Shown here one piece after another: positions 1,643-56,890 of a DNA stretch of 64,000 nucleotides. The stretch covers positions 17,871-81,870 of the forward strand of contig JAHZHI010000055.1 of the NCBI GenBank assembly GCA_019420345.1. Reading direction: 5' to 3'. The notes beneath the pieces are model-generated. The model worked only from the letters and a program-made list of their open reading frames with translations. It made no database searches and was not told the origin of the DNA. The translations under genes and the position numbers were made by a program. The DNA is from Peptococcaceae bacterium (GTDB lineage: Bacteria > Bacillota > Peptococcia > Peptococcales > Peptococcaceae). Within the stretch, counting starts at the first letter, position 1, and each line of letters begins with the position of its first letter.

Positions 1643-1645
1643 GTC

Positions 1646-6037: not shown

Positions 6038-6190
6038 AATGTCGTCCTCCTGTGTCAATGCTCTTTGCTTATTCACTACTATACAGGAGATTCTGCGGCT
6101 GTCAACAAAAACTGCCGCCGATAAAAAGCGTTTTTCTAAAAAAGGACCCAACGGTTACACCGCCAAGTCCATTTTCAAGCACTACTGTTT

Positions 6191-9429: not shown

Positions 9430-10071
9430 TTAATCCACGCACGCATCCAAGAGCTTGAAAGCCAAAAAGCACACCACCAACACACCTGCCACAACAGCAA
9501 TGTGAACGCTACAGAGAAAGGTGGTCAGATAGATGCTGGCCAGCAAGGACGCTGCCAGCACCACAAACACCAGGACGAAAAGCCTGCCCAATTTGTCGTC
9601 GAAGGCATGGCGGGAGATGCTGTGAAAAATATAAAACGCCGCTGCCAAAATCAGAACTTGCCCGATCACATCGCCCAAGGTCAGCGGCAAATACGGCCCG
9701 TCCTGCGCGCCCACCATACCAATCACCCCATAGGCCAACCAGATCACACCGAGCACCACAAACGCCAGCAGCACATTGCGTACACTATCCAGTAGGCGTT
9801 CCTTTTGCGAGCGCGGCGGCAAGGCCGCAATCACCGCTTCGCAGAAGGCCTGCGCATCCTCACCCAGCACCTCTTCCGCCGTGCGCCCCTCGGCCTGGGC
9901 ATCCAGCAGCATATGCGTGATGTCCCGCCGCACCAGCTCCTGTTCGTACTCGCTGATGTTCGCCGAGCGAATGTAGACAACGATGTTCGTCATCACCTGC
10001 TGATTGTCCTTGTTCAACTGAGCATCCAAAGCATTGTTGACGCGCAGCAGTTCTTTCGTTCGTTTGCTCAT
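9430..10071 (-). CDS. PadR-associated membrane protein, paralogue 4 (DUF1048/DUF1129/HAAS-like N-domain plus TM domain)
   Basis: Starts MSKRTKELL. Conserved block DITHMLLDAQAEGRTAEEVLGEDAQAFCEAVIAALP, followed by about 4 TM helices. Confidence 0.6.
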   Translation of the reverse strand: MSKRTKELLRVNNALDAQLNKDNQQVMTNIVVYIRSANISEYEQELVRRDITHMLLDAQAEGRTAEEVLGEDAQAFCEAVIAALPPRSQKERLLDSVRNVLLAFVVLGVIWLAYGVIGMVGAQDGPYLPLTLGDVIGQVLILAAAFYIFHSISRHAFDDKLGRLFVLVFVVLAASLLASIYLTTFLCSVHIAVVAGVLVVCFLAFKLLDACVD

Positions 10072-10085
10072 GGTCATTCTCTCCT

Positions 10086-10745
10086 TCAAGCCTGTCTTTT
10101 GTCAATAATACGAGCAAGAAATACCCACGCCAATCCAACAAGCGCAACCACGCCAATGAGCAGAACCATATTCACAACGATCATTGGCTGTCCGAAAAAA
10201 CTATCAATGATCACGTCTCCCGCAATCAGGCAACACAATAATACAACATATAAGCCAACCACTCGCCCCGGCATGTCACTGAATGCATACTGTGCATTGT
10301 TCCACGAAATATACCAAGCCAAGACAATGAAACCAAGATAAAGCCAAATTCGTCCAGCTGTGAATGGAATATCTGGCCAAGCAGCCAAATTGTTGAACAG
10401 ATCCAAAACAATCCAAACCGCCAGGAAAACAAACAACTGCGCCAAAAATTGCTGTGCCAACGCCATCCACTTCATAACTGGTGACAAACGTGGCGCCGCC
10501 GCGATCACCTCATCGCAAAAAACACGGTAATCATCGCCGATAACCTCCTGCACAGACTGCCCGCGTGCCTGGCCTTCCAACAGCATATTGACGATATCGT
10601 GGTAAATCAATGTTTTCTGATCAGCACCAACATCAGTAAAACGAAGATAGTCCTTCATCTGCTGCATAAATTGCGCATAGTCAGAATGAAGTTCTGCTTC
10701 CATCTTTTTAATCTCTTTTCTAGCGATACGTGTCCGTTTACTCAT
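10086..10745 (-). CDS. PadR-associated membrane protein, paralogue 3
   Basis: Starts MSKRTRIARKE. Block DIVNMLLEGQARGQSVQEVIGDDYRVFCDEVIAAAP, then TM helices. Confidence 0.6.
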   Translation of the reverse strand: MSKRTRIARKEIKKMEAELHSDYAQFMQQMKDYLRFTDVGADQKTLIYHDIVNMLLEGQARGQSVQEVIGDDYRVFCDEVIAAAPRLSPVMKWMALAQQFLAQLFVFLAVWIVLDLFNNLAAWPDIPFTAGRIWLYLGFIVLAWYISWNNAQYAFSDMPGRVVGLYVVLLCCLIAGDVIIDSFFGQPMIVVNMVLLIGVVALVGLAWVFLARIIDKRQA

Positions 10746-11478
10746 GGTCGTTCCCTCCTTCATCCACATGTTCATTCAACCAGAAAAAGGCCCCCACCAA
10801 CAGCGCTTGCACCGCCACATTCACCACAAGCGGCAGCATAAATAATGGCTCTGTCAAGAAATCCGGTAACTGCACCCAACGACTGCCTATGTTTATGACA
10901 TACAATAATGCAAAAAATGCCACATAGTACAACACTTTTCGACGCAAAGAAAATTGAACATCGGCCTGCCAGCGTCTGCGTGTCACAGAGATCCGCGCGC
11001 ACGCCCAGCTCAAAACCATCAGCAAAAGCACTTGCAGCACCGTAAACGGCACACTTGTCGTCACACCATAATATTCTTTGACAACCTCCCACACCCCAGG
11101 AACCGACGAGTAGATCAAATAAATCTCGATGACAGGCACTAAAAAAGCCAGTGCCCAGCCGAGAGCCAGCCCGCCAATACCATCGCGTCCCATGCGCAGC
11201 CGCCGCTCACGCAGCGTAGGCTGCGGCAAAGCACCAATGATCGCATCACAAAACGCGCGGTGGTCTGTCCCCAAGACGTCTTCAATGCTGCGTCCCTGTG
11301 CCTCTGCCTCCAACAACAATTGTGCAATATCACACTGCACACTCAGCCGATGATAAGCACCAATATTTTTCATCTTTAAATAAGCAATCATCTTGTCCAA
11401 TGCAGCTGCCGCAGTCGGCGTCAGCTTTGGATATAAATTGTACAGTTCATCTTTCAGCGCACGCGTCCGTTTGCTCAT
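10738..11478 (-). CDS. PadR-associated membrane protein, paralogue 2
   Basis: Starts MSKRTRALKDE. Block DIAQLLLEAEAQGRSIEDVLGTDHRAFCDAIIGALP, then TM helices. 8-nt overlap with paralogue 3. Confidence 0.6.
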   Translation of the reverse strand: MSKRTRALKDELYNLYPKLTPTAAAALDKMIAYLKMKNIGAYHRLSVQCDIAQLLLEAEAQGRSIEDVLGTDHRAFCDAIIGALPQPTLRERRLRMGRDGIGGLALGWALAFLVPVIEIYLIYSSVPGVWEVVKEYYGVTTSVPFTVLQVLLLMVLSWACARISVTRRRWQADVQFSLRRKVLYYVAFFALLYVINIGSRWVQLPDFLTEPLFMLPLVVNVAVQALLVGAFFWLNEHVDEGGNDHE

Positions 11479-11494
11479 GGTCGTTCTCTCCTTC

Positions 11495-12154
11495 TCATTG
11501 CACCCATTTCAGCATTTTTTTCACAAGCAACACGAAAACAAGCAAAACCAGCAAATAGAACATCAGCGGAATATGCAGCTGCAGTGTTGGTACCAATCCA
11601 GCAAAGGCACCACATACAGCTGCTGCAAAGGCCAAAAGAAGCACCGGTCCTAACTGGTCTCGCCATGTACCGTGCAATTCCTGGCGTGCATGATAATATC
11701 TTGCCACATGAATGATTAAAAGCATTGCAAAGAACTCGGCAGTTGTCTGCGGCATTAGAACAACGGACCAAACATCCGCATTGTCCTCCAGCACCTCCAA
11801 AATGTGCCCAATCAGTTCAAAGGCCAGATAGAAGATCACAGCCAAAACCACATCGCACAGTTTGTTGATTAACCTGTTTCTCCAAGCCAGGCGCGGCAAT
11901 GCTGCAATCACAGACTGGCAAAAAGCTTCATAGTCTTCACCGATAATGTCTTCCGCCCCGCGTCCACATCGTTCTCCGTCCAAAAACATTTGTAAAATGT
12001 CCCACTTCACATTAAGACGCTCTTCAATAGCGATCGGTGCAGTGTCGATATAGTCGCAAAGATCTTCAAAAAGCCTCCTGTTTTCTTTGCCGAGCGATTT
12101 TTCTAGCGCATAAATCTCGCTGTAGCTCAGTTTGTTCCTGCCAGATGCGTTCAT
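11495..12154 (-). CDS. PadR-associated membrane protein, paralogue 1
   Basis: Block DILQMFLDGERCGRGAEDIIGEDYEAFCQSVIAALP, then TM helices. A GGGGGA RBS lies about 8 nt before the ATG at 12154. Confidence 0.6.
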   Translation of the reverse strand: MNASGRNKLSYSEIYALEKSLGKENRRLFEDLCDYIDTAPIAIEERLNVKWDILQMFLDGERCGRGAEDIIGEDYEAFCQSVIAALPRLAWRNRLINKLCDVVLAVIFYLAFELIGHILEVLEDNADVWSVVLMPQTTAEFFAMLLIIHVARYYHARQELHGTWRDQLGPVLLLAFAAAVCGAFAGLVPTLQLHIPLMFYLLVLLVFVLLVKKMLKWVQ

Positions 12155-15660: not shown

Positions 15661-16494
15661 ATGAAAAAGCTCAATAGGATTCTTCTTGTTCTCAGCCTTG
15701 CGCTCTGCCTGGTCGGCGGCGTCCTGCTCGCTGTCGGTGCCTTTGCCGGCGGCATTGACGACGCCCAGGAGATCGCCGGCACTCGTACACGCACCTACAA
15801 CCAGGAAAAAATGCAGCTCGAAGACTTCACAGCCATCGATGCCGATCTCGCCACTTCCGATCTTGAGATTCGCCCATCCAGCGATGACCACGCCTATCTG
15901 GAATATCACATTGACGCCCCACTTGACCGTCAGCCCCTTGAAACGACCGTGCAAAATCAGGTGCTCACCCTGCGTGATTGGCGCGAAGGCGAAAGCAACG
16001 ACGTCACACCTTCTGTCTCAAATCTTCTCAGCTGGCTGCCATATGGCGAACATCGCAGCATCAATAACAGTGAAGTCATTCTCTACCTGCCTGCGACCAC
16101 CTTTGAGCGCTGCACCATCGACATGGACATTGGCGAACTCACCATCGATGGACTGAATGCCAGCGCACTTGATCTGTCTCTCAGCGTCGGCGATCTTACC
16201 CTTAAAAACTGCACCTTTGCCAGCAGCGACATTGACCTGGACCTGGGCGACGCCAATGGTGACAATATCTCCATGACTGGCGACAACAGTGTCAGTCTCT
16301 CCACCGGTGACCTTTCCTTCAAACTGACAAATCCAGATACTCTGAACATTAACGCCGATACAGACATAGGCGACGTTAACACCAACGACCGCTACACTGG
16401 TAACCTTAGCGACAGCCACTTCAACCAAACCAGCGACAACGCCAGCGGCAGCCTCACCCTTTACGCTGACCTTGGCGACATCACACTCGAATAA
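15661..16494 (+). CDS. DUF4097-like beta-repeat protein (putative adhesin/LiaG-like), N-terminal TM anchor
   Basis: Repetitive D-L-x-L-x-x-G-D strands (LDLSLSVGDLTLKN, IDLDLGDANGDNISM, SLSTGDLSFKL, YADLGDITLE). It completes the usual PadR-DUF1700-DUF4097 triad. Confidence 0.65.
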   Translation: MKKLNRILLVLSLALCLVGGVLLAVGAFAGGIDDAQEIAGTRTRTYNQEKMQLEDFTAIDADLATSDLEIRPSSDDHAYLEYHIDAPLDRQPLETTVQNQVLTLRDWREGESNDVTPSVSNLLSWLPYGEHRSINNSEVILYLPATTFERCTIDMDIGELTIDGLNASALDLSLSVGDLTLKNCTFASSDIDLDLGDANGDNISMTGDNSVSLSTGDLSFKLTNPDTLNINADTDIGDVNTNDRYTGNLSDSHFNQTSDNASGSLTLYADLGDITLE

Positions 16495-16555
16495 ACATCA
16501 TCACAACCTCATTCTTTATCATTTATTGAACGAAAAAAATATTTCTCTCCGTTTT

Positions 16556-16583
16556 GAAGCAGCAAATTGGCTGCTTCTTTTTT
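16556..16583 (+). terminator. rho-independent terminator
   Basis: gaagcagc-aaattg-gctgcttc followed by TTTTTT. Confidence 0.75.
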
Positions 16584-16629
16584 ATGTTCCGAAAATAGTG
16601 TCTGTTAATTGCTGCTCCCGTTATTTTCA

Positions 16630-16675
16630 TTGACACAAGCTGCCTCTCGCACTATTATAGTTCTGAAACGAACTA
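16630..16675 (+). promoter_or_regulatory. sigma-A type promoter plus candidate MarR operator
   Basis: TTGACA at 16630-16635, a 17-nt spacer, TATTAT at 16653-16658. A perfect inverted repeat tagttc-N6-gaacta sits at 16658-16675. Confidence 0.5.
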
Positions 16676-16694
16676 TTTTCAAAGGAGTGTCTGT

Positions 16695-17147
16695 ATGGAT
16701 ACGCACTGGAACATTCTATTCACCGTCAAAGAAGCCTATTCAAGCTGCATCCATCCGATCTGCGAAAAATACGGCATCAATTTAATGGCATATTCTATTT
16801 TAATGTTATTGGCAGACAATGCAGCGCAAAATACGGCACAAGAGCTCGCAAACACCTATCATTTGTCAAAATCACACATCTCAACATCCTTGACAGCATT
16901 GGAAAACAAAGGCTACATACAACGTTTGAAAAAAAATGGCCAGCGAAAAAACATCCACATCAAGATACTGCCAGCCGGGTTTGAAGTTGTCACAGCAGGA
17001 AAATCTGCCCTGGGCGACCTGGCACAAGTTGCTGCGCAGGGATTTTCAGAGCAGGAAGCCCTTTTTTTAAACAATAGTTTGATTAGGCTCAACGACAACC
17101 TGGAACGATACATTCAAGGAAAACAGGAGGAAAAACAATCGTTATGA
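16695..17147 (+). CDS. MarR family transcriptional regulator
   Basis: 150 aa with the wHTH region AQELANTYHLSKSHISTSLTALENKGYIQR. Confidence 0.8.
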   Translation: MDTHWNILFTVKEAYSSCIHPICEKYGINLMAYSILMLLADNAAQNTAQELANTYHLSKSHISTSLTALENKGYIQRLKKNGQRKNIHIKILPAGFEVVTAGKSALGDLAQVAAQGFSEQEALFLNNSLIRLNDNLERYIQGKQEEKQSL

Positions 17148-18499
17148 AAGAAGATCTCTCACAAGATAAAAGAATCTATACCATGGCAGAGGAAACACCG
17201 GTAAAAGCCGTGCTTAAAATGGGCGTGCCCGTCACAATGGGCATGCTGTTCATGGTCGTTTACAATCTCGTCGACACCTATTTCATTGGGTTGCTCCATG
17301 ACGACTACCAACTGGCGGCTACGAACCTTTCTTATCCTGTAATGATGGTATCGGTCGCAATTGCAAACATCGTGGGCAACGGCGGCGCTTCGTACATAGC
17401 CCGCTGTATTGGTGCCGGCCAACGGGAACGTGCAGCACACACACTCACAACCGGCCTTGAAATGATTCTCATCTGCGGCATTTTACTAGCCATCGTCGGC
17501 ACGATATGGATCGACCCCATCGTCACACTGCTAGGGGCATCTGAAAAAACATTTGCCTATACGAAAGATTACTGTCTTGTGACGATCCTCGGTTCTGTAT
17601 TTTTAATGAGCAATTTTGCCGTGGGGCAGCTGCTGCGCAGCGAGGGGTCAACATTCTACTCAATGATCGGCATGATCAGCGGCACCATTGCCAACATCAT
17701 TTTGGACCCAATCTTTATTTTCACCTTTAACTTGCAAATAACAGGCGCTGCCATCGCCACAGTGCTTGGCAACGTGCTCAGCACCGCCATCTTCTTATCC
17801 TTCTATATCAGAAGGAAAACCCTTTTGAGACCATCTCTGCAATATATCAAGCCAAAGAAAAAAATTGTCAAAGAAATTCTGCTCGTGGGCGTGCCGAGCA
17901 CACTCGAGCAGCTTTTTGCAACCGTCGCCATGATTGTCAACAACAACCTCGCTGCCGGTTACGGTGAGCAGACCGTTGCCGCCATGGGTATCGTCAACAA
18001 GATTATGAGCTTTGGCACCTACATCTACCAGGGCATGGCCGGTGGCTGCCAACCATTAATGGGCTATAACTTTGGAGCGCGCAATTATAAGCGCATGAAA
18101 CGCCTGCTCATCACCGGCGCCTCCGTCACTGCCGCAATCGAGCTGGTGGTCATGGCGATCTTTGGTCTTTTCGCACCATACTTGATTAGTATTTTCACCG
18201 CTTCCGCCGAAGTCATCTCAATCGGTGCCACCACCATGCGGGCACTCATGCTGATGCTGCCCTTCGTTGCTGTAACCACCATTGTCCGGAGCACTTTCAA
18301 CGCCATGGGAAAACCAATGTTTGCCTTTGGCATCACCGTCATCCGTCAAGGAGTGCTCTACATTCCATTCTTATTGCTCTTCAACCATCTATGGGGTTAC
18401 ACCGGATTGATCCATGCACAGCCTAGCGAAGAAGTCGTCTGCATGCTCTTCGCCCTGTGGCTAATGTTTTCACGTTTGAAAAAACTCCCAAATCAATAA
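17144..18499 (+). CDS. MATE family efflux transporter
   Basis: 451 aa, 12 TM. N-terminus VLKMGVPVTMGMLFMVVYNLVDTYFIG. ATGA overlap with the MarR gene. Confidence 0.85.
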   Translation: MKEDLSQDKRIYTMAEETPVKAVLKMGVPVTMGMLFMVVYNLVDTYFIGLLHDDYQLAATNLSYPVMMVSVAIANIVGNGGASYIARCIGAGQRERAAHTLTTGLEMILICGILLAIVGTIWIDPIVTLLGASEKTFAYTKDYCLVTILGSVFLMSNFAVGQLLRSEGSTFYSMIGMISGTIANIILDPIFIFTFNLQITGAAIATVLGNVLSTAIFLSFYIRRKTLLRPSLQYIKPKKKIVKEILLVGVPSTLEQLFATVAMIVNNNLAAGYGEQTVAAMGIVNKIMSFGTYIYQGMAGGCQPLMGYNFGARNYKRMKRLLITGASVTAAIELVVMAIFGLFAPYLISIFTASAEVISIGATTMRALMLMLPFVAVTTIVRSTFNAMGKPMFAFGITVIRQGVLYIPFLLLFNHLWGYTGLIHAQPSEEVVCMLFALWLMFSRLKKLPNQ

Positions 18500-18643
18500 A
18501 CCGCTCCCTTCGCCCATACGAGGCGTGGCAACTGTAGAATACAGCTGTTACGCCTCTTTTTCATTCTACATGCAGGCATAAGAAAAGCCCAAACCATCGG
18601 ATCAACCAAACGATTTGAGCAAAACAATATTCTGATGTTCTAT

Positions 18644-18695
18644 TTACGCTTCTACCTGACGCACAAGGTTGACCATTTCGATGGCGGCCTGGCGC
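18644..18695 (-). repeat. orphan direct-repeat copy of the ribH 3' end (left boundary of the AT-rich island)
   Basis: ttacgcttctacctgacgcacAaggttgaccatttcgatggcggcc(-)tggcgc. 45 of 46 core positions match 23219-23264, and the match extends with one 1-nt indel. Confidence 0.85.
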
Positions 18696-18792
18696 AATTC
18701 TTGATCATGAGGACGCCTTAAACATTCACACAGATAGATCCAGAAACCATCCACATAACTAGTAACCGAACCAACCATTTTATCCCCCATAT

Positions 18793-19470
18793 CTATCTCA
18801 TTCGCTGTTCTTCTAATTCAGAAATCATTCTTCCTAAATAATCCAAATCAATGACTAAAATACGTTTTCCTGATAAACGTTGTATAACGCCTAACTTTTC
18901 CAACTCCAACAAATATTTACTAATATTTGTTGTATGTGTACCAATCAACGATGCCATATCCTGACGAGATAAATAATCATCTAATATGACACCTCGTTCT
19001 AATTTTACAGAAGATGTTATTGCTATTTCATAGAGCAACCTATAAAAGCGTACTTTACAAAATAAATTTGAATCATTGATAAAATTCTCTATTAATCCTT
19101 CATATCTTTCATATACCTGATTCATAAAATTTAAAAAGAAATCTGGTATTGCCGCTCCCAATGAAAAAAAGTCTTCTTTCGTTATCATCAACAACTCACA
19201 AGTTTTAACAACCTGAATTTGTTTACTAATATTAAGCTTTTTTGCATGAAAAGTGGGAATAACGCAACCATCTCTTAGCAACCAAAGCAACCGCTCATTG
19301 CCTTCCATATCATTAACATATACTTTAATAATACCATGATTTAAAAGATAAATATATTTGTCATCCGGAGAAAAAAATTGTTCCCCAGCTTCCAACGTAT
19401 ATTTTAGCTGTGCATTGTCTAAAAAGACATTTTTCAAATATATATCATATGAAAAAAAATCAAAAACCAT
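18793..19470 (-). CDS. Crp/Fnr family transcriptional regulator
   Basis: 225 aa with an N-terminal cNMP-binding-like barrel and a C-terminal HTH (LSRQDMASLIGTHTTNISKYLLELEKLGVI). AT-rich codon usage. Confidence 0.75.
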   Translation of the reverse strand: MVFDFFSYDIYLKNVFLDNAQLKYTLEAGEQFFSPDDKYIYLLNHGIIKVYVNDMEGNERLLWLLRDGCVIPTFHAKKLNISKQIQVVKTCELLMITKEDFFSLGAAIPDFFLNFMNQVYERYEGLIENFINDSNLFCKVRFYRLLYEIAITSSVKLERGVILDDYLSRQDMASLIGTHTTNISKYLLELEKLGVIQRLSGKRILVIDLDYLGRMISELEEQRMR

Positions 19471-19584
19471 TGCCTATCACCATCCACTGCACTTGTACTA
19501 CTAATATATACGCAACCAAACCACTACACAATACTTTAAATCAAACAAGCGACAGGAAATACCGTCACTTGTTTGATTTAAAAA

Positions 19585-21030
19585 CTATAGCATTACAAAT
19601 CCCAATGGAATTCCCACACAGATCATGGATAATTCAACCGTCAGAAGAACAATAATCCCATATTTTAAAGCTTCTCGTTTACCAATCCATTCATACCCAT
19701 AAATCAAAGCCCCACGATTAGATGCTGCTGGTGTTGAAAGAGCAGCCAATAAACATTGACTACCACCCGCAGCAATAATCAATGCAACTTGTTCCGCCAT
19801 TCCAATTTCAATAACCAATGAGCTAATTAATGGAATTAATGTTGTTGCTAATATTAAATTATGTGCAAATTGTGTAGTAACACCTAATAAAATTAAACTA
19901 AAGACAATAATGACCACTGGTGACATACTATAGAACAATGGAGAAATAATCTCAACAATGTATCCAATAATATTCGTATCTTCAGAAGCTAGTGCCGCTC
20001 CCATCGGCATTGTTGCTGCAACCAATGCCATTAAGTCCCAATTCACACCTTTGTGTTCCAACGTAGCAAAATCGGCAACGCTTTTTTCTTTGAAACGCAG
20101 TGCACAGGCAATACATATCGCAATAATCAAACATCCAAAATCACCAACCAGGTTATAAAATCGAACAAGAAAGAAGCTTTCTGGCAATATTAACGGTAAT
20201 AGAATTACGATTGTAAATCCTACGACAATACTCCCGGATATAATTTGTGCCTTCTCGAACTTTGAGCTTCGACCGTTTGTAATTTGTTCCACTGTTAATG
20301 ATTTAAACTTTGAAACATCCACATGCAATATTTTTCCGGCAATTATATACAATACTAACGCAACAAAAGAAATAACGATCATATAAACAATAAATTTTCC
20401 AGAAGGAATAGAAAGACCCGTAGCTTGATTCAAGGCATTCAAACATACTTTAGGAAAAACTTGATACGGCATAACCGTTCCGCCAAGTGTCGCCATTTGT
20501 AAAACACCAACATGTAAAAATGCAGCAGTGTTGTGTTTTCGTTCATACCCAACGATATCACAAATGCTCCCCAAAATTGCCCAGAAGAAGAATATAATAG
20601 CATAAGTCATAATGAAAATGCCTAAGATATAGGCCGCTATGAATAACATAATAACAAAAACCCAAGGCTTTCCAGCAATGAATCGTCTAGTCAAAAACCA
20701 AATAGCAACCTTTTCACTAAGCCCCGATTCCGTTGCATAAGACGCAATGATAAAAAAGAAGAAAATCTGTAAAAAAGTGCTATTCCCAAAACCTTGTGCA
20801 AATGCGTCAGATACCGTCACATAACCTGTAGTGCCCAAAGCAACCAATCCCAGAAAAGATGGCCACAACATATCCACAAACATCCATCCATAGACAAGCC
20901 CTAAAAAAACACCCAATACTTTCATACCAATATCGGTTATTGAGCCAATTTCTGGCAAATAACCAAAGCCAAACATGATGAGCAACATTATAATACTATG
21001 AATATTATACTTTATATCTTTGTTCAACAT
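19585..21030 (-). CDS. ion-transporter superfamily permease (SLC13/DASS- or ArsB/NhaD-like)
   Basis: 481 aa from MLNKDIKYN, more than 10 TM helices. Hairpin-type motif STPAASNRGAL near the C-terminus. The family assignment is tentative. Confidence 0.5.
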   Translation of the reverse strand: MLNKDIKYNIHSIIMLLIMFGFGYLPEIGSITDIGMKVLGVFLGLVYGWMFVDMLWPSFLGLVALGTTGYVTVSDAFAQGFGNSTFLQIFFFFIIASYATESGLSEKVAIWFLTRRFIAGKPWVFVIMLFIAAYILGIFIMTYAIIFFFWAILGSICDIVGYERKHNTAAFLHVGVLQMATLGGTVMPYQVFPKVCLNALNQATGLSIPSGKFIVYMIVISFVALVLYIIAGKILHVDVSKFKSLTVEQITNGRSSKFEKAQIISGSIVVGFTIVILLPLILPESFFLVRFYNLVGDFGCLIIAICIACALRFKEKSVADFATLEHKGVNWDLMALVAATMPMGAALASEDTNIIGYIVEIISPLFYSMSPVVIIVFSLILLGVTTQFAHNLILATTLIPLISSLVIEIGMAEQVALIIAAGGSQCLLAALSTPAASNRGALIYGYEWIGKREALKYGIIVLLTVELSMICVGIPLGFVML

Positions 21031-21109
21031 AAACTTTCGCCCCTTTATGTTGAAAGCCCCCGGCAATCTTGATCAACAAACTGCCGGGAGCCTTCTTTTC
21101 ACCTAATGT

Positions 21110-23044
21110 TTATTGCTCCAAAGCTTGGTAAATAACAGCACCTTCACAGTTTTTCGGCACCGGAATGCCCGTAAGCGCACAAACTGTTGGAACAACATCA
21201 ACCGCACGCACACGTCTCTCAATCAAATTATGAGCTTTTACACCAGCCCCCATCATTGCAAAGAACGCTTTAACCGACGTTCCTTTGTAACTGTGAGTTG
21301 TTAATGACGTACCATGTACACGTGTCCATTCTGGATTAAACACAAAATAAATATCACCAACGGTGCTGCCATACAATCCCAAGACTTCCATTTCATCGCG
21401 GTCAAAGGCGAAAGCAACAGGGCGTCGTCCTTGTTCATCTTTATAATCCAGAAGATCATTTTTAATTTTCTTGACCAAGCTGTCATAATCTTTTGGATCA
21501 ACAATACCCTCAGGATCTCTTCCCTTCAAATTGATATAAATATAGCCACTTCTTTGGCCCAGTGCTACGGTTTTGCTCCAGTCAATAACTGGCACGCCAC
21601 CACTGCGATCTACAGATAAATAGCCGAGATCTTCCATGACCTTGCCGCCAACACTCCAAGGGTCACCAACAAGCGGCGTTTCGCAATCTTCAGCCTTACT
21701 CATGCCGCCATGATCCGATGCCAAAACAATAACGGTATTGCCATCATCAAAAGCTTCCATCATCCGCTTAACAAGATGATCGGTAATCTTATAATATTCA
21801 CGAATGATATTCATATAATAGTCCGCTTTTTCACCAGTGTATTCCGGCAAGCACAAATTCTGATAATTATGATTGCAGCAATCAAGTGCATGACAATGCA
21901 TATAAAATACATCCCATGGTTTATTTTCGCCTAAATAAATCATAGAATTTTCGATCCATTCATATTCTGCGGCCATGGTTTCAAGCATAACATCGTCAAA
22001 ACCACAAGCAGACATATGAAGCATTGGACCAACGTTCTCAAGCAATTCATCCGCGATGGTTTGTGGATAGAAATATTTTTTGTTACTTGCGTCAAGGATA
22101 TAGCTTCGATACAACGTATAACTCGATGCATCTGCCGCTAGTTCAATCAATTTTACTTTATAGTACACTTTTGATGTAATATTAGTGAATGTAAATTCAT
22201 CTTCAATCCAATCAGAGTATTCACCAATTTTTACGGTACCGATTGGCGTTTCATCAGAACGCTTTTTGAGAATTTCCATGGTATCATATTTACCATCTGC
22301 ATTTTTCACCAATCTGCCATAACGTCTCGTACGACCTTGGTTCAGCAGCAATACTGTTGTAAGTTCGCCGTCTTTGTCCTTAATTGGACAATTGTATCGG
22401 TCAATTTTAAATTTGATATTTGTTGCATTGGTTCTTTTATCATCAGCAATAACAAAACTTTCAGTTTGATTTTCTTCATAGTCACGGAATTCAAAATCCA
22501 ACGTTTCAATATCGTCTTCGACCACGCAGCCTAAACCTGAATTGTTCTTTTCATGCAATTCCGATTCTACATCAGCGTTGTTGATATCACCAAAATAAAT
22601 GCCCTCGCTTTCACAATATCCATGAGAATTAGGATTAATTGCAGTTCCATCAACAGCGATAATTTTTTCATTTGTTGGTGGCCATGCCGTTGGATAATTG
22701 AAAACAATCGCATTTCCACCCGCCTTAATTGCAGAATCCCAAATAAATTCAGCTCGACAAAGCTTAGAATTAAATCCTACATCTAATTGCGTCAATGGAT
22801 TTCCTGATTCATGATTCCAGTAGCAGGTTATTCCGTGAGTTCCTGGATACGCACCAGTTGCTAAACTGGCCCAGTTTGGAGGAGTAATCGTTGGTTGAAC
22901 GCCCAACATGCCATAATCTTTATTTGCCGTACCTTTATCAATAAATTTCTGAATATTAGGAAGTGCTCCCTCGTTCAAAAAACGAGACATCAACATTGGA
23001 TCTGCACCGTCAATACCTAAAAATAACACTCTTCTATTTTTCAT
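21110..23044 (-). CDS. alkaline-phosphatase superfamily protein (type I phosphodiesterase / nucleotide pyrophosphatase-like)
   Basis: N-terminal metal site VLFLGIDGADP, nucleophile region QPTITPPNWASLATG..PG.HG, and distal site LASDHGG. At 644 aa it is much longer than the roughly 400-450 aa core. Confidence 0.65.
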   Translation of the reverse strand: MKNRRVLFLGIDGADPMLMSRFLNEGALPNIQKFIDKGTANKDYGMLGVQPTITPPNWASLATGAYPGTHGITCYWNHESGNPLTQLDVGFNSKLCRAEFIWDSAIKAGGNAIVFNYPTAWPPTNEKIIAVDGTAINPNSHGYCESEGIYFGDINNADVESELHEKNNSGLGCVVEDDIETLDFEFRDYEENQTESFVIADDKRTNATNIKFKIDRYNCPIKDKDGELTTVLLLNQGRTRRYGRLVKNADGKYDTMEILKKRSDETPIGTVKIGEYSDWIEDEFTFTNITSKVYYKVKLIELAADASSYTLYRSYILDASNKKYFYPQTIADELLENVGPMLHMSACGFDDVMLETMAAEYEWIENSMIYLGENKPWDVFYMHCHALDCCNHNYQNLCLPEYTGEKADYYMNIIREYYKITDHLVKRMMEAFDDGNTVIVLASDHGGMSKAEDCETPLVGDPWSVGGKVMEDLGYLSVDRSGGVPVIDWSKTVALGQRSGYIYINLKGRDPEGIVDPKDYDSLVKKIKNDLLDYKDEQGRRPVAFAFDRDEMEVLGLYGSTVGDIYFVFNPEWTRVHGTSLTTHSYKGTSVKAFFAMMGAGVKAHNLIERRVRAVDVVPTVCALTGIPVPKNCEGAVIYQALEQ

Positions 23045-23155
23045 ATTAAATACCTCCTAAATGATTTCTTCACTACACGTAGAGAATATCACGATGCATG
23101 AACACAGCACTTAGAAATTACCAACTTCTTATCGTTTTCATTTATTTTTCTTATC

Positions 23156-23199
23156 AAAAAAAGACCATTGCAACACAAAACTTGCGTTGCAATGGTCTT
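23156..23199 (-). terminator. rho-independent terminator of the rib operon
   Basis: Perfect 14-bp stem aagaccattgcaac / gttgcaatggtctt (23161-23174 and 23186-23199), with a T-tract on the minus strand. Confidence 0.85.
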
Positions 23200-23218
23200 T
23201 CTATTTTCATTTTATTTT

Positions 23219-23271
23219 TTACGCTTCTACCTGACGCACGAGGTTGACCATTTCGATGGCGGCCATGGCGC
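23219..23271 (-). repeat. direct-repeat copy inside the functional ribH 3' end (right boundary of the island)
   Basis: Matches 18644-18695 (see that feature). It encodes ...[16 protein letters not shown] plus the stop codon. Confidence 0.85.
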
Positions 23272-23686
23272 TGTCGTAGCCTTTGTTGCCAGCTTTGGTG
23301 CCGGCGCGTTCGATGGCTTGTTCAATGTTTTCAGTGGTGACGACGCCGAAGAGCACTGGCACGCCGCTGGAGAGAGAGACGCTGGCGATGCCTTTGGAGA
23401 CTTCGTTGCAGACACAGTCATAGTGGCTGGTGGCACCGCGGATCACGGCACCGAGGCAGATGACGGCGTCGTATTTGCCGCTTTCGGCCATTTTCTTCGC
23501 GATGAGTGGGATTTCGAAAGCACCTGGCACCCAAGCGAGATCGATGTCTTCTTCCTTGACATCGTGACGCAGCAAGGCATCACGGGCACCTGCGACGAGT
23601 TTAGAAACGATGAATTCATTAAAACGCGCAGCAACAATGCCAATTTTAATGCCGTCCGATACGAGTTTTCCTTCAAATGTGTTCAT
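23219..23686 (-). CDS. ribH: 6,7-dimethyl-8-ribityllumazine synthase
   Basis: 155 aa. Contains [19 protein letters not shown] and [14 protein letters not shown]. Confidence 0.95.
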
Positions 23687-23714
23687 GATAAGACTTCCTT
23701 TCTTTAGTTAACAA

Positions 23715-24914
23715 TCAATAATTTAAGAGATGACCCATGCGGTCTTGTTTGGTCTTGAGATAGAATCGGTCATAGTCATTGGCTTCCATTTGAATTGGCA
23801 CGCGTTCAACGATTTCCATGCCAAATTCTTCGAGCTGGTAGACTTTGTCCGGATTGTTGGTGAGCAGACGCATGCTCTTGACGCCAAGCTCGCGCAGAAT
23901 CTGCGCACCGATGTAATACTCACGTTCATCGGCTGCAAAGCCAAGAGCGAGGTTGGCTTCCATGGTGTCCATGCCCTGATCCTGCAGTTCGTAAGCACGC
24001 AGCTTGTTGATGAGACCAATGCCGCGGCCTTCTTGGCGCATGTAAAGGAGCACGCCGCGGCCTTCGCGTTCGATCTGAGTCATGGCTGCAGCGAACTGCT
24101 GGCCGCAGTCGCAGCGCAGGGAGCCAAAGGTGTCGCCGGTAAGGCATTCTGAATGCACGCGGCAGAGCACGTTTTCGCCGTCGCCAATGTCGCCTTTCAC
24201 GAGGGCAATGTGGTGCTCGCCATTGAGGCGATTGACGAAACCATAAGCCTTAAAATCGCCGTATTTGGTCGGCATCTTCACGACGGCAGCCTGATCAACG
24301 AGTTTTTCGTGGGTCTTGCGATAATCCTGCAGATCCTTGATGGTGATGAAGGTCAGCCCCCACTCTTTGGCAAGCTCAACCAGCTCGGCGGTGCGCATCA
24401 TGGTACCATCTTCGCGCATGATTTCGCAGCAGAGGCCGCATTCTTTGAGCCCGGCAAGGCGGCAGAGATCGACAGTGGCTTCGGTGTGGCCATTGCGTTC
24501 CAACACGCCGTTTTTCTTTGCGAGCAGTGGGAACATGTGTCCCGGACGTCGGAAATCTTCCGGCTTGGCATTCTCATCCACACACGCCATAGCGGTGATG
24601 GAACGTTCTGCGGCAGAAATGCCTGTGGTGGTCGATGCGTGGTCGATGGACACGGTAAACGCTGTTTCGTGGTTGTCGGTGTTCTGGGTCACCATCTGTG
24701 GCAGGCGCAGTTTTTCGATGTATTCTACACTCATTGGCATACAAATGAGGCCTTTGGCATGGGTAGCCATGAAGTTAACATTTTCTGTGGTGGCAAATTC
24801 TGCCGCACAGATGAGATCGCCTTCATTTTCTCGGTCGGGATCGTCGGTCACAAGAATCAGTTTGCCTTGACGCAGATCTTCCAAGGCTTCTTCGATGGTG
24901 TTAAAGGTTGCCAT
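23715..24914 (-). CDS. ribBA: bifunctional 3,4-dihydroxy-2-butanone-4-phosphate synthase / GTP cyclohydrolase II
   Basis: DRENEGDL and HTEA motifs (DHBP synthase) plus [17 protein letters not shown] (GCH II). Confidence 0.95.
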
Positions 24915-24926
24915 ATCTATTTCCTC

Positions 24927-25571
24927 CTAAAAGCCATATTCGGCTAAAAATTCTTTTGTAATGCCGCTCTTCGCAGGCGTTTCCGCCGGTTGGAGCAGTT
25001 TTTCAACGTATTTGCCAATGATGTCACATTCCAGATTCACCGTGTCGCCTTCGTGACGTTCTCGCAGCACTGTCTGTGCCACAGTATGAGGAATGGCTGA
25101 AATGGAAAAATCATGTTCGGTCACTGCAGCCACCGTAAGGCTGATGCCATCAATAGTGATCGAGCCTTTTTCAACGATGTAGCGCAAAAGTGCCGGCTCA
25201 CAGGCCACGGTGTACCAAATGGCAGTATCGTCGCGCCGCAGTCGCGTGACACGGCCGGTGCCATCCACATGGCCGCTGACGATGTGCCCGCCAAAGCGTC
25301 CATCGGCAGCCATGGCCCGTTCCAAGTTCACATGGGTGCCGCTGGCGCATTGTGCCAGCGAGGAACGGTTCAGGGTTTCATGCATGACATCTGCCGTAAA
25401 ACCACCATTTGTCAACGATGTCACCGTCAGGCAAATGCCATTGACAGCAATGCTGTCGCCGATCTTGGTGCCTTCCAGCACCTTTTCACAGGCGATGGAG
25501 AGCACCGCTGAATGAGCACCGCGGCGAATGCCGCTGATGGTGCCAACTTCTTCAACAATCCCGGTGAACAT
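24927..25571 (-). CDS. ribE: riboflavin synthase
   Basis: MFTGIVEEVG, and the duplicated barrel motif GDSIAVNGICLTV / GSITIDGISLTV. Confidence 0.95.
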   Translation of the reverse strand: MFTGIVEEVGTISGIRRGAHSAVLSIACEKVLEGTKIGDSIAVNGICLTVTSLTNGGFTADVMHETLNRSSLAQCASGTHVNLERAMAADGRFGGHIVSGHVDGTGRVTRLRRDDTAIWYTVACEPALLRYIVEKGSITIDGISLTVAAVTEHDFSISAIPHTVAQTVLRERHEGDTVNLECDIIGKYVEKLLQPAETPAKSGITKEFLAEYGF

Positions 25572-26658
25572 GGTCGATCACCTCACTTTCAATCAAGATG
25601 TCTTCACCAAGGCGAGTGATCTCAGTAATACGCAGCTGCGCCGCTTCATCAGGCGTATCAATGCCCACGCCTTCCACCGGCGTCTTGGCCTCTCTGCCGC
25701 CAAAGAGCTTCGGCGCAATATAGCTGCACACCTTCTGCACGATGCCTGCTTCAAGCGCCGCCCAGTTCAAGGTGCCGCCGCCTTCTAATAAGACGCTGTC
25801 AACGCCCTCTTCGCCAAGGCGCTGCATCAGCACTGCGAGATCCACATGCCCTGCGTGTTCTGGCAGCACCCAAACGTTGCAGCCAGCTTTTTCGTATGGA
25901 GCACGCTTTTCCGGTACCGTCTCGCACGTAGCAATAAGCACCGGTGTTTCTTGTGCTGTCTGCACCAGCTTTGAAGACAGCGGTGTGCGCAGATGCGTGT
26001 CACAGACGATGCGCAGCGGATTGCGTCCGCCTGGCAGCCGGCAGGTAAGCTGCGGGTCATCCGCCAGCACGGTGCCCACGCCAACCATAATCGCTGCATA
26101 ACGATGACGCAGCGCATGGCCATGTGCACGCGCTTCTTCGCCAGTCACCCAGCGTGACGCACCAGTATGGGTTGCAATCTTACCATCGAGGGTCATTGCA
26201 GCCTTCATCACCACAAAAGGCTGCTTGTGACGAATATAATGTAAAAAGACTTCATTTAAGGCATCGCACTCAGCGCGCAGCACGTTCTCTGTGACGCTGA
26301 TGCCATGGCTGCGCAAAATTGCAACCCCTTTGCCCGCCACCAACGGATTGGGGTCAGCCGAACCCACCACCACACGACGTATGCCTGCTGCAATGATGGC
26401 ATCGGTGCAAGGCGGCTGCTTGCCATGATGACAGCAAGGCTCCAAGGTCACATACATGGTCGCTCCTTCCACCGATTCTGTCGCATGCTTCAAGGCATTG
26501 CGCTCTGCATGCAAGTCGCCGTAACGTTCGTGCCAGCCTTCGCCGATCACACGTCCATCTTTCACGATCACCGCGCCCACCATCGGATTGGGCGACGTCC
26601 ATCCGCAGCCGCGCTCTGCCAAGGCCAGCGCCTGGCGCATATAATCCTGATCGTTCAT
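25552..26658 (-). CDS. ribD: bifunctional diaminohydroxyphosphoribosylaminopyrimidine deaminase / 5-amino-6-(5-phosphoribosylamino)uracil reductase
   Basis: Deaminase zinc motifs HAE....TLEPCCHHGKQPPC plus the reductase C-domain. Start MNDQDY is at 26658, 6 nt after GAGGTG. Confidence 0.9.
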   Translation of the reverse strand: MNDQDYMRQALALAERGCGWTSPNPMVGAVIVKDGRVIGEGWHERYGDLHAERNALKHATESVEGATMYVTLEPCCHHGKQPPCTDAIIAAGIRRVVVGSADPNPLVAGKGVAILRSHGISVTENVLRAECDALNEVFLHYIRHKQPFVVMKAAMTLDGKIATHTGASRWVTGEEARAHGHALRHRYAAIMVGVGTVLADDPQLTCRLPGGRNPLRIVCDTHLRTPLSSKLVQTAQETPVLIATCETVPEKRAPYEKAGCNVWVLPEHAGHVDLAVLMQRLGEEGVDSVLLEGGGTLNWAALEAGIVQKVCSYIAPKLFGGREAKTPVEGVGIDTPDEAAQLRITEITRLGEDILIESEVIDHVHRDC

Positions 26659-26719
26659 TGGGATCACCTCACAAAAGAAAAAGCCCTGAACGATCTTGAC
26701 CGTTCAGGGCTAAAAGTTT

Positions 26720-26900
26720 TTGAAAAAAATAAATCTGGAATGATTGTCATTCCAGAGCCTTCGCACGTGAAACATTCACGCGTTCCATCTTCTTTCATCC
26801 AGACTGTACTGTCGGCTTCGGAGTTTCACCGAATCATGCGCATCGCGCTCGTGGGCTTTACCACCGGTAGGGACTTGCACCCTGCCCTGAAGATTTGTTC
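26720..26900 (-). promoter_or_regulatory. FMN riboswitch (RFN element) with intrinsic terminator
   Basis: The minus strand reads cttcagggcagggtgcaagtccctaccggtggtaaagcccacgagcg...ggtgaaactccgaagccgacagtacagtctggatgaaagaag. This matches the conserved RFN core. A terminator tctggaatga/tcattccaga (26734-26756) with a T-run follows. Confidence 0.9.
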
Positions 26901-29016: not shown

Positions 29017-29141
29017 TCCAGGCTTTTAAATGTGTGCCGCACACAACGCCGAAAAATATTTTGAATAAAAATCCATGAAACAGCATATGCTGTATATATT
29101 GTTGTCACGATCCACCCTCATTGCCAAGAAAGGAGCCTGTT

Positions 29142-32100
29142 ATGAACGCATGTGAACACACGTCCCACAGCCTCTATGATCCGCGCTTTGAGCATGACGC
29201 CTGCGGCATCGGTGCTGTGGTCGCCATCGATGGCAAACCGTCACACGAAATCGTGTCCGACGCGCTGCACATCGTTGAAAAACTGCGTCACCGCGCTGGC
29301 CGTGATGCCACCGGCAAGACAGGCGACGGCGTTGGGATTCTCTTGCAGATTCCCCACCGCTTGTTCGCCGCCGTCGCCCAAACACACCACGTCGATCTCG
29401 ATACACCACGCAGCTATGCAGTCGGAATGTTTTTCTTTCCACAGGATGCGCTGACCCGTTCTCGACATCGCCGCCTCTTTGAGGTGATCCTCAACAAACA
29501 CCATTTATCGCTGCTTTTCTGGCGGCAAGTGCCGATCCATCCAGAAATCCTCAGCGACGCAGCGCATTCCTGTATGCCATACATTTGCCAGTGCGTCATC
29601 CAACGGCCGGAACATGTGACAAGTGATCTCGCCTTTGACCGTGCGCTGTACATTGTGCGCCGCGAATTTGAGCAATCTGTTTCAGGCACTTATGTGGCGT
29701 CCTTGTCCTGCCGAACCATCGTCTACAAAGGGATGTTTCTGGTTGAGCAGCTGCGGCGCTTCTACGCCGATCTGGAAAATCCAAACTGCGCATCGGCGCT
29801 GGCACTGGTGCACTCCCGCTTCTCGACAAACACGACGCCAAGCTGGGAACGCGCCCATCCAAACCGACTGATTCTGCACAATGGTGAAATCAACACCATT
29901 CGCGGCAACATCGATCGAATGCTGGCGCGTGAAGAAACGATGCATTCGCAAATCTTCTCAGAAAATCTCGATCAGATTTTTCCAGTTGTCAACCCTTCCG
30001 GTTCCGACTCGGCCATGCTTGACAACACCCTTGAATTTCTCATGTTCGCCGGTATGGAACTGCCCCATGCTGTCATGGTGACAATTCCAGAACCTTGGCA
30101 AAAGCAGCGTGACATCAGCCGCGCCTGCCGCGACATGTATCATTACTACGCCACCATGATGGAACCTTGGGACGGACCTGCCGCCATCCTCTTTTCTGAC
30201 GGCGACCAAGTGGGTGCTGCCTTGGACCGCAACGGTCTGCGGCCACTGCGCTACTATCAAACCAAGGACCGCCTGATTCTGGCTTCAGAGGTTGGCGTCT
30301 TAGAAGTGCCGCCAGCTTCCATCCTGAAAAAAGGGCGGCTGGAGCCCGGAAAAATGCTGGTGGCCGATTTGATCTCCGGTGTTATTCTCGAAGACACTGC
30401 CGTTAAAGAAAAATACGCCAGCGCGCAGCCTTATGGCGAATGGCTGGACCGCGAGCTGGTCCTTCTGGCAGATCTGCCAACAGCAAAAACACGCGTTGAA
30501 CGGCATCCGCAAACACTGCGCAGTCAGCTCTACAGAAACTTCGGTTACACCTTCGAAGATATTTATCATTCTATTTTGCCAATGGCCGCCTCGGGCACAG
30601 AGCCCATCGTTTCCATGGGAACAGATATTCCTCTGGCGGTGCTCTCCGAAGCTCCACAGCCATTGTTCAACTATTTCTATCAAATGTTCGCTCAAGTCAC
30701 GAACCCGCCAATTGATGCGTATCGTGAAGAAAGCGTCATTGACACAACGATCTACGTCGGCACCGACGGCAATTTGCTGGAGGATTCTCCCAAAAACTGC
30801 CGCGTGCTGCAGCTGGACAGTCCCATCTTGACCAGCATTGATATGCTGAAAATCAAGGCACTCCATATGCCAGGGCTGAAAAGCACTGTGATCTCTTTGC
30901 TTTACTATTGCAACACCTCACTAGAACATGCGCTTGAGCGCTTGTTCATCAACTGCGATAAGGCTTACCGAAACGGCGTGAATATTCTCATTCTTTCCGA
31001 CCGTGGCGTTGACGAAAACCACACGGCGATACCTTCTCTGCTCGCCGTTTCGGCCTTACAGCAGTATTTGATTCATACAAAGAAACGCACCGCGGTTTCC
31101 ATCATTCTGGAAAGCGCAGAGCCGCGTTCGGTGCATCATTTTGCGACACTTCTCGGTTACGGCGCCACTGCCGTCAATCCGTACCTGGCGCATGAATGCA
31201 TCGACGAACTGATCGAAAACGGTCTGCTTGACCGCGACAGCTCCGTCGCCATTGACGCCTACAACACCGCTGTCAAGAACGGCGTCGTGGAAATCGCTGC
31301 AAAAATGGGCATTTCCACCTTGCAATCCTACCAAAGCGCACAGATCTTTGAAGCAGTCGGGATTTCATCAGCGGTCATCGACCGCTATTTCACAAACACC
31401 ATCAGCCGCATCGAAGGCATCGGTCTTGACGACATTGCTAAAACCGTGGACTGGCTCCATGACCGTGGTTTCGACCCAATGGGCCTGCCAAGCAGCACCA
31501 CCCTTTCTACCACTGGCATGCACTGTCTGCGTTCTGAACCTGGCTCAGAAGACCATCTCTGGGACGCCAAAACCATCCTGGCTTTACAAAAAGCGGTGCG
31601 CGAAGATTCTTATGAGGCGTTCCAAGAATACGCCGATCTTTCCAACCATGTGGTGCACCCTCACACCTTGCGGCGACTGCTGGATTTTGATTTCAGCCAA
31701 GCAACACCAATCCCACTGGATGAGGTGGAAGCGGAGACAGAGATTGTCAAACGGTTCAAAACCGGCGCCATGTCGCTCGGCTCCATCTCCCCAGAAGCCC
31801 ACACCTGTCTTGCCATCGCTATGAACCGCATTGGCGGGCGATCCAATTCAGGGGAAGGCGGTGAATCGCCAGACCGGTTGGAAACCGAATCTGGCTCAGC
31901 CATCAAACAAGTGGCCTCTGGCCGTTTCGGTGTCACCAGCGCTTACCTGACCAGTGCCAAAGAAATCCAAATCAAAATGGCACAAGGTGCCAAGCCTGGT
32001 GAAGGTGGGCATCTGCCAGGAAAGAAAGTCTGGCCACACATTGCCAAGCTGCGTTATGCAACACCTGGCGTGACGCTGATCTCGCCGCCACCGCATCACG

Positions 32101-33653: not shown

Positions 33654-34384
33654 ACGACCTGAACTTTTTGAAGCATCAAACGGAAGCCCAACGCTGTTAT
33701 GGCTGCGGCGTGCCATTCTGCCAAACTGGCACCGTCATCGACGGCAAACAATTTGGCTGTCCGCTCCACAACCTGATTCCAGAATGGAACCATATGCTGG
33801 GAAACGGCAATTTGCAGCAAGCGGTGTCCCGCCTTCTGCAAACAAACTGCTTCCCTGAAATTACTGGACGCATTTGCCCAGCATTCTGCCAGCAAGTTTG
33901 CCTCCATAAGGAGGTTGACACACCGGTGCAAACCCGTGCCAACGAGCTCTTTCTCGCTGAGTACGCCTTTGAAAAAGGGCTGATTGCACCGCTGATACCA
34001 ACGGTGTATTCCGATTGTACCATCGCCATCATCGGCGCTGGTCCGATGGGATTGGCCGCTGCGCATGATCTCAGTGCTCGTGGTCACACCGTCACCGTCT
34101 ACGACAAGGCCGCCGCTCCTGGCGGACAATTGTTGACAAACGTGTCTGAGAAACGTCTGCCTCGAGACATTCTCGCACGCCGCATTGCATTACTCGAGGC
34201 ACAAGGCGTTGAATTCCGCACCAACGAGGAGGTTGATGAGGAATCTCTCAAAACGTTCTATGATGGAGTCGTCAACTGCACACACGGCCAACCACGACCT
34301 TCTGTGGCGCTGGCAATCGCCGCAGGCACCAAGGCAGCGGCTGACGCTGAAAAAGCATTGATCGGCTATACCAATCTACTCTAA
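33650..34384 (+). CDS. glutamate synthase small-subunit-like protein, internally shortened (lacks the NADPH-binding domain)
   Basis: Fe-S Cys clusters and IAIIGAGPMGLAAAHDL, then a direct jump to a C-terminal GltD-like ...SVALAIAAGTKAAADAEKAL. It is 244 aa, against about 450-490 aa for canonical GltD. ATGA coupling to gltB. Confidence 0.7.
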   Translation: MNDLNFLKHQTEAQRCYGCGVPFCQTGTVIDGKQFGCPLHNLIPEWNHMLGNGNLQQAVSRLLQTNCFPEITGRICPAFCQQVCLHKEVDTPVQTRANELFLAEYAFEKGLIAPLIPTVYSDCTIAIIGAGPMGLAAAHDLSARGHTVTVYDKAAAPGGQLLTNVSEKRLPRDILARRIALLEAQGVEFRTNEEVDEESLKTFYDGVVNCTHGQPRPSVALAIAAGTKAAADAEKALIGYTNLL

Positions 34385-56762: not shown

Positions 56763-56770
56763 TAAGCAAA

Positions 56771-56820: not shown

Positions 56821-56890
56821 GAGAAAGGCGTCAATATTTTCTAAACGCGATATAATAAAAAGAACTCACACGCCAAAGGAGGCCTTTTTC

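Follow-up and report, generated by a model that had tools for sequence, protein, structure and literature searches.

How does the 3′ end of a housekeeping gene come to be present twice, in direct orientation, around foreign genes that bring no integrase with them? The question is raised by a 64-kb stretch of DNA from a Peptococcaceae bacterium (contig JAHZHI010000055.1), analysed here in full and referred to as the window, in which an AT-rich cassette of three genes lies between the true terminus of the riboflavin gene ribH and an orphan copy of the same terminus. An earlier note on this DNA took the cassette for an element inserted at a ribH-3′ attachment site. Our analysis favours, tentatively and at a little short of an even chance, a different answer, in which the cassette would be an integrase-less (decayed) cargo islet in a recombination hot spot and the repeat would be the scar of its joining to the chromosome at the ribH terminus. 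Judged by its gene content, the cassette appears not to be self-mobile, since it holds no mobility genes.

The direct repeat (18643–18689 and 23218–23264) is 47 nt long with 46 of 47 positions identical, which agrees with the 46-bp core (45 of 46 identical, about 52 bp with a 1-nt indel) described earlier. Read in the sense of ribH, it comprises the third base of a Met codon, 14 codons (rather than the 15 first counted), the TAA stop and one further nucleotide. A 1-nt indel is followed by six further matching bases (GCGCCA); outside these there is no alignment on either side. The edges of the repeat are sharp, and the segment of foreign composition is exactly bracketed by the two copies. Open reading frame (ORF) and Pfam analysis identified the copy next to the rib operon as the real end of ribH, encoding a 155-aa DMRL (lumazine) synthase, and the other as the orphan, as had been proposed. 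The core occurs exactly twice in the 64 kb at up to three mismatches, where none is expected (100 shuffles), and a pattern search at the same threshold returned no third copy in the window. The general risk attached to metagenome assemblies is all that speaks for the repeat being an assembly artefact or a chance similarity, an explanation to which we assign practically no probability. The orphan junction (L119) and the ribH–cassette junction (L004) recur, identical to the window, in one independent sample (SRR31800730), and the same junctions are found in L001 (from SRR21898928) and L003, which come from further samples; SRR34911926 and SRR9850977 are also cassette-positive runs. Artefact was ruled out by these independent assemblies, which carry both junctions in three or four other samples, and chance by the zero expectation in shuffles for a 47-nt match with one mismatch. 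The second copy is therefore real.

The DNA between the copies is foreign by composition. Its GC content is 0.374 against a background of 0.525 ± 0.033 in 1-kb windows (z = −4.6, range −3.2 to −6.2), its tetranucleotide distance is 0.48–0.66 where the background maximum is 0.325, and the GC content at third codon positions (GC3) of its genes is 0.24–0.32 as compared with 0.57–0.65 for host genes. The GC trough, which had been noticed from hand counts, is thus real and extreme by both sliding-window and tetranucleotide statistics. Its cargo is likewise as described, namely a Crp/Fnr regulator, a permease and a 644-aa phosphodiesterase (ORFs, Pfam). Homologues of the cassette at 71–85% amino-acid identity were found in four other chromosomal contexts (after thrS, after ABC permease genes, beside an HTH/3H regulator and in an outer-membrane/Tol-type neighbourhood), with no integrase among the called neighbours and with a cassette GC content 2–10 points below the local flanks in each. 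Because close homologues sit in at least four other genomic contexts, the cassette moves horizontally; it travels between genomes, and nothing shows a recombinase of its own or one dedicated to it. In one distant genome a homologous cassette (Crp, phosphodiesterase, permease and OsmC) is bracketed by a 36-nt terminator palindrome whose two copies are 83% identical (L095, 361–396 and 5395–5430), which may be an analogous duplication of the 3′ flank of the upstream gene.

Relatives with an empty site were found through a degenerate-core scan of metagenome contigs and a look-up of the identical PadR protein. The MATE gene next to the orphan was tried as a syntenic anchor and failed, its homologues lying at 76–79% identity in unrelated contexts. 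Eleven contigs (L101 and L109–L118), with flanks 94–96% identical to the window, and an outgroup at 78% (L100) all lack both the cassette and the MarR–MATE pair beside it. In these sites window position 16496 is joined to 23219 by a spacer of about 50 nt (52 nt): ribH is followed by 10 nt and a strong bidirectional terminator, next to which comes the stop codon of the convergent DUF4097 gene (window 16494). Since the empty sites also lack MarR–MATE, the true indel is 16497–23218, a 6.7-kb block of two modules, MarR–MATE and the AT-rich cassette, with the orphan copy inside it where the two modules meet. The empty site that had been predicted, in which MATE would adjoin a single-copy ribH end, did not appear: the eleven contigs and the outgroup join ribH to DUF4097 instead, and in no sampled genome does MATE directly follow a single ribH terminus. 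The proposal of an insertion at the ribH 3′ end therefore holds in part. Foreign, accessory and strain-variable DNA does lie at the end of ribH, and relatives lacking the three genes do exist (L101, L109–L118 and L100), but the real indel is the larger block and the orphan is not its boundary.

The block is present in the window lineage and in a sister species (L092–L094, from an assembly labelled Peptococcaceae bacterium) and absent from the 12 empty-site loci, so that the spacer was sampled in three states: empty, filled by two modules (6.7 kb) and filled by three (8.6 kb). The rib operon is 97% identical to that of the empty-site strains up to the ribH stop, the identity of DUF4097 to these strains drops toward the junction, down to 0.83–0.87, and window-to-relative identity varies from 0.82 to 1.00 across 150-nt windows. 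The best reading is that the convergent spacer between ribH and PadR–HAAS–DUF4097 acts as a local recombination hot spot. Among the usual marks of a genomic island, compositional deviation and presence/absence polymorphism are both found here, and mobility genes are missing from 16497–23218. A separate observation concerns a relative 85% identical to the window (L102, 12483–12570), in which the ribH terminator is broken after its left arm and loop, 70 nt before the contig ends, which suggests that a further and distinct insertion occurred at this hot spot.

The sister species carries the same cassette, in the same placing relative to ribH and MATE, with 92% identity to the window in the rib operon, 92% in the cassette and 88% in the other flank. 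Synonymous divergence (dS) between the two is 0.28–0.32 for the phosphodiesterase and permease genes, 0.31–0.43 for the rib genes and 0.68 for Crp; between the window and the empty-site population it is 0.10–0.22. Since the dS of the cassette is similar to that of the rib operon between two species, the cassette is old, and the idea that it is newly integrated was not sustained. To explain its present/absent/present distribution, one must assume loss, homologous transfer by recombination or a polymorphism that has persisted for long.

These data bear on the model of the earlier note, in which the two copies are the true attL and attR of a recombinase encoded elsewhere, and the cassette is a decayed or trans-mobilised element. 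Two kinds of known element would be its counterparts. The fda-linked elements of Streptococcus thermophilus are decayed remnants of integrative and conjugative elements (ICE) or integrative and mobilizable elements (IME) that retain attL and attR at a gene's 3′ end, and the staphylococcal cassette chromosome (SCC) and pseudo-SCC elements occupy the 3′ end of rlmH (orfX), where repeats of 15–18 bp are the sites of Ccr serine recombinases and many different occupants are found. In favour of the model, direct repeats take in the end of a housekeeping gene and restore that gene, they bracket the foreign DNA exactly, and the content is cargo only, in tandem with another module and horizontally mobile across taxa. 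A cis-mobilizable element (CIME) is defined by att-like repeats that take in the 3′ end of its target, together with a lack of integration and transfer genes (PMC5704250), and both features are present here. As in pseudo-SCC, a conserved gene is joined at its 3′ end by a composite island of recombinase-less cargo, with modules separated by gene-end direct repeats. Moreover, the window does encode one recombinase, a Xer-like tyrosine recombinase (56747–57736) that scores below the XerC/XerD cut-offs; it is the only one in the 64 kb and lies 33 kb away.

However, the search for machinery and for other use of the site argues against this model. No recombinase, integrase or transposase was found between the repeats, as had been noted before, or in or beside 16497–23218 (ORFs, Pfam), and there is no core-like site near the Xer-like gene. 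When the tail of each of 82 other ribH genes was searched for in its own locus over 10 kb downstream, no convincing second copy emerged, only four short matches of 17–21 nt that we judge to be due to chance. The segment 18500–23300 had no blastn match among the plasmids of PLSDB or the phages of INPHARED, the degenerate core had none among the viral contigs of IMG/VR, and its matches in metagenome contigs were all ribH ends in single copy. In none of these sets is the end of ribH used recurrently as an attachment site, and no integrase-bearing element was seen at it. Nor was a remnant of an ICE, IME or phage module found, and the core has no recombinase-type inverted repeat except a 5-nt pair (ATGGC/GCCAT) at one edge. 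A tRNA target is not indicated either, ARAGORN giving only an implausible call with a 4-base anticodon, far off. In a CIME the arm beyond the distal repeat should be the original flank of the target (attR = P-O-B′), whereas here it differs from the ancestral sequence downstream of ribH; the sister species, moreover, has the cassette without att copies, and neither a related element with an integrase nor another use of the site came to light. A duplicated gene end was also not seen in other contexts of the cassette (none in L098), though L095 has its duplicated terminator. The locus departs from SCC in its target (ribH), in being a single instance, in the length of its repeat (47 nt) and in having one internal repeat for two modules, and neither a Ccr-like nor any other serine recombinase was found in the window. 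It also lacks the dif-like sites of integrative mobile elements exploiting Xer (IMEX), with two inverted Xer arms around a 6–8 bp spacer, the site being the coding end of ribH. We consider a remote recombinase acting on att sites improbable; the locus is a further instance of an already known kind of feature, and we have no evidence for an att system.

The Xer-like gene has features of its own. Its 329-aa product is encoded in overlap with the start of a gene for a 371-aa protein (region 56747–58848) that contains five tandem repeats of about 213 nt, each a DUF4379 treble-clef zinc-finger unit, and the two may form a small mobile or regulatory pair.

The orphan lies in a mosaic junction. Its arm on the MATE side (18500–18642) matches only the same-strain contigs L001 and L002 and is unrelated to the ancestral spacer and terminator downstream of ribH, as seen in L100–L102, L092 and L109–L118. 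A 345-nt segment that holds the orphan (18466–18810) replaces a non-homologous 141 nt of the sister species, and identity to the sister falls toward this segment from both sides. MATE is 94–99% identical to its counterpart in the sister over the first 300 residues and 79–80% over the last 150, which is as far as unrelated MATE homologues. The divergence of the MATE C terminus and the high dS of Crp point to a recombinant patch of about 1.5 kb, centred on the orphan, that was acquired from a more distant third lineage, in the line of descent of either the window or the sister.

Within this patch the core behaves differently from its arms. Between L001 and the window the arms are virtually identical and the orphan core differs at five positions, all of them synonymous in the ribH frame (chance ∼7e-4). 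Most of the variant codon states of the orphan also occur in the population's ribH alleles, with the window's orphan resembling a GTC-AAC-CTT allele and that of L001 a GTT-AAC-CTC allele, and a derived GTA codon is common only to the window's ribH and its own orphan. Since the orphan variants are synonymous and allele-like with identical arms, the core has been overwritten from functional ribH with the arms left untouched, by gene conversion that seems to be confined to the 47 nt of core homology. Excision and reintegration of an element would not yield altered orphan alleles between identical arms, a further point against att sites. A non-coding 47-nt duplicate that tracks the alleles of its parent gene would provide a natural example of conversion at near-minimal homology.

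The orphan and its arm also form a 44-codon ORF (18644–18778, minus strand) that ends in the C-terminal 14 residues of RibH. We rejected it as a conserved gene: a 1-nt insertion in L001 alters its N terminus and leaves the start unconserved (the tail stays in frame from an alternative ATG), there is no positive sign of expression, and selection on it is not needed to explain the synonymous pattern. That this ORF is expressed, or that the ribH terminus is the attachment site of an unseen trans-acting recombinase shuttling integrase-less cassettes in uncultured gut Clostridia, are ideas to which we give very little credence, the evidence disfavouring both.

Our preferred explanation would run as follows. 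In an ancestor ribH would have been followed by the MATE module, and incoming cassette DNA would have joined the chromosome at the ribH terminus, either by single crossover of a circular molecule at short homology or by homology-facilitated illegitimate recombination (HFIR), with ribH as the anchor and GCGCCA as the microhomology joint. Both routes would rebuild an intact ribH and strand the old terminus. The composite would later have spread and been reshuffled among related lineages by homologous recombination, and the stranded copy would have been overwritten repeatedly from functional ribH alleles, with conversion limited to the 47-nt core. A pop-out or pre-insertion junction would read ribH ...GTAGAAGCGTAAA joined to TAGAACATCAGAATATTG, and a circle junction would read ...CAAGAATTGCGCCAGGCCGCC...GCGTAAA joined to AAATAAAATGAAAATAGAAAGACC.

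HFIR is a route by which foreign DNA is captured in natural transformation (de Vries & Wackernagel 2002; Prudhomme et al. 2002, as summarised in PMC6382021), and its joints contain 3–10 bp of microhomology (PMC6382021). The arm/core joint described here, a 6-nt GC-rich match at a 1-nt offset, is within this range, although it is a single instance. The locus further resembles such events in having no element recombinase, in what may be the pairing of a conserved-gene anchor on one side with short GC-rich microhomology on the other and in the insertion lying at an intergenic spot where selection tolerates it, within a heavily recombining population. It differs in that duplication of 47 nt of target is not the usual documented outcome and in that the joining mechanism is one we infer from the scar alone. 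The window also has T2SSF and T2SSE genes (a platform and ATPase of type IV pilus or competence type) at 440–3163, which possibly bear on DNA uptake by the host.

Several observations weigh against this explanation. The sister species has no second ribH terminus and its ancestral terminator is still attached to ribH, which implies that the scar disappeared in that lineage or that it was formed after, and independently of, the entry of the cassette. Some 18 A-rich bases that follow the real ribH stop can be aligned with the ancestral spacer and may be its remnant, which would fit a deletion origin of the ribH-proximal junction. The source of the two orphan arms had no match in any fetched locus, and the intermediate, with MATE after a single ribH terminus, is missing from the sampled genomes. 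In addition, 47 nt is about the lower limit for RecA-dependent exchange, and we know of no demonstration of HFIR in this bacterial group.

The first two of these points would be accounted for if the cassette had entered without touching ribH, as in the sister species, and the orphan had arisen later in the window lineage, either as templated filler or ectopic conversion during repair of a break in the Crp–MATE spacer or by import of a junction allele. In that case the loss of 2.2 kb, with the terminator, MATE2 and TetR2, from a sister-like ancestor would have produced the ribH-proximal junction. In the sister species an extra AT-rich TetR–MATE pair (L092 3684–5667, GC 0.41) indeed lies between the ribH terminator and the cassette and is continuous with the latter, the spacer thus holding three efflux/cargo modules. 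The position of the 345-nt replacement segment at the centre of a highly diverged patch is consistent with a secondary origin of the orphan, as is its near-identity (46/47) to the resident ribH end despite the age of the cassette (dS ∼0.3). However, this scheme requires two separate events in one lineage, and a direct ribH fragment would, by our rough estimate, come to lie exactly at the distal compositional boundary by chance in about 1 in 10 cases (five intergenic spacers, two orientations). Templated copying from ribH does not explain the flanking arms, and the TetR–MATE2 pair is linked to the cassette in none of the four other sampled contexts. We regard a later origin of the orphan as unlikely, if still a serious competitor, and retain the joining scar as our preferred explanation.

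The locus also resembles the genomic islets that occupy chromosomal hot spots between conserved core genes, a general concept of pan-genome work. It shares with them polymorphism of presence and of module content at one spacer, mosaic flanks and the lack of mobility genes, and is set apart by the long, conversion-maintained duplicate of a gene terminus that brackets it. An att-like picture, with a gene-end duplication, a GC trough and no integrase, can arise, or at least persist, without a dedicated recombinase. Comparison with the population shifted the boundaries of the island by 2 kb, and island callers that rely on direct repeats need such checking. What emerges is that an abundant, uncultured gut lineage has a modular hot spot next to its rib operon.

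Table 1. Features of the accessory block and its flanks (window coordinates)
Feature	Position	Strand	Evidence and remarks
DUF4097 (toastrack) gene, last of the PadR–HAAS–DUF4097 operon, left flank	15661..16494	+	Pfam PF13349
Whole accessory block, between the stops of convergent DUF4097 and ribH	16497..23218		Relative comparison; absent from empty-site relatives
Terminator-like hairpin inside the block, now after DUF4097	16556..16577	+	Terminator scan; conserved in L092
MarR-family regulator, module 1	16695..17147	+	Pfam PF01047; GC3 0.47; missing in empty-site strains
MATE efflux transporter, module 1, host-like composition	17144..18499	+	Pfam PF01554; GC3 0.61
Arm from MATE stop to orphan, with MATE terminator hairpin (~18520–18556)	18500..18642		Hairpin −23.9 kcal/mol, z −4.6
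Orphan ribH terminus, spanning 14 codons, the stop and 1 nt	18643..18689	-	Repeat and pattern search
Arm from orphan to Crp stop; first 6 nt (GCGCCA) match ribH at 1-nt offset	18690..18792		Alignment
Crp/Fnr-family regulator, cassette gene 3	18793..19470	-	Pfam PF00027, PF13545; GC3 0.24; dS 0.68 vs sister species
Long hairpin in the permease–Crp gap, 19-nt arms, 95% complementary	19535..19582	-	Repeat search, terminator scan
CitMHS/anion-permease family transporter, cassette gene 2	19585..21030	-	Pfam PF03600; GC3 0.31
644-aa AlkP-superfamily phosphodiesterase/pyrophosphatase, cassette gene 1	21110..23044	-	Pfam PF01663
Cassette-borne intrinsic terminator	23160..23200	-	Fold −29.5 kcal/mol, z −8.4, then U7
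Functional repeat copy, true 3′ end of ribH (155-aa DMRL synthase)	23218..23264	-	Repeat search, Pfam, allele comparison
ribD-ribE-ribBA-ribH operon, right flank	23219..26667	-	ORFs, Pfam
FMN riboswitch controlling the rib operon	26783..26898	-	Rfam RF00050, 110.7 bits

The ancestral terminator of ribH is lost, and ribH now seems to be terminated by the cassette-borne hairpin at 23160–23200 (Table 1); a degenerate homologue of this hairpin precedes the phosphodiesterase gene in L092. Behind DUF4097 the hairpin at 16556–16577 now takes the place of the lost ancestral bidirectional terminator. No Rfam family was found in the orphan arms, the FMN riboswitch being the sole scoring family in the 12–30 kb part of the window.

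Family membership of the three cargo proteins makes uptake and hydrolysis of anionic phospho- or phosphono-esters under Crp/Fnr control the most likely role of the cassette. The phosphodiesterase has no obvious signal peptide by eye and is likely to be cytoplasmic. Domain and structure matching returned only weak matches at the N terminus, to structures of PhnA and ENPP, and no close relative that has been characterised or solved; an exact-protein look-up gave no record. A cassette of regulator, permease and AlkP-type hydrolase that travels widely among Firmicutes may suit functional work on organophosphate use in the gut.

Further observations concern the wider neighbourhood. In one empty-site strain (L112, 110–940) an insertion sequence with an rve-family transposase takes the place of the DUF362 and GPP34 genes of window 4043–6151. 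Downstream of the PadR gene, the window (9430–12154) and L109–L118 have tandem paralogues of the DUF1048 family, whose copy number ranges from two to four among strains of the related population. The ARAGORN call of a ‘tRNA-???’ at 7912–8008 falls inside an ABC-2 permease ORF (7471–8085) and is almost certainly a false positive. Directly after the glutamate synthase genes (29121–34384), a 555-aa ORF at 34441–36108 encodes an ammonium transporter fused to a P-II domain. Finally, a 203-aa ORF at 42809–43420 contains a TIR domain (PF13676) and is possibly defence-related.

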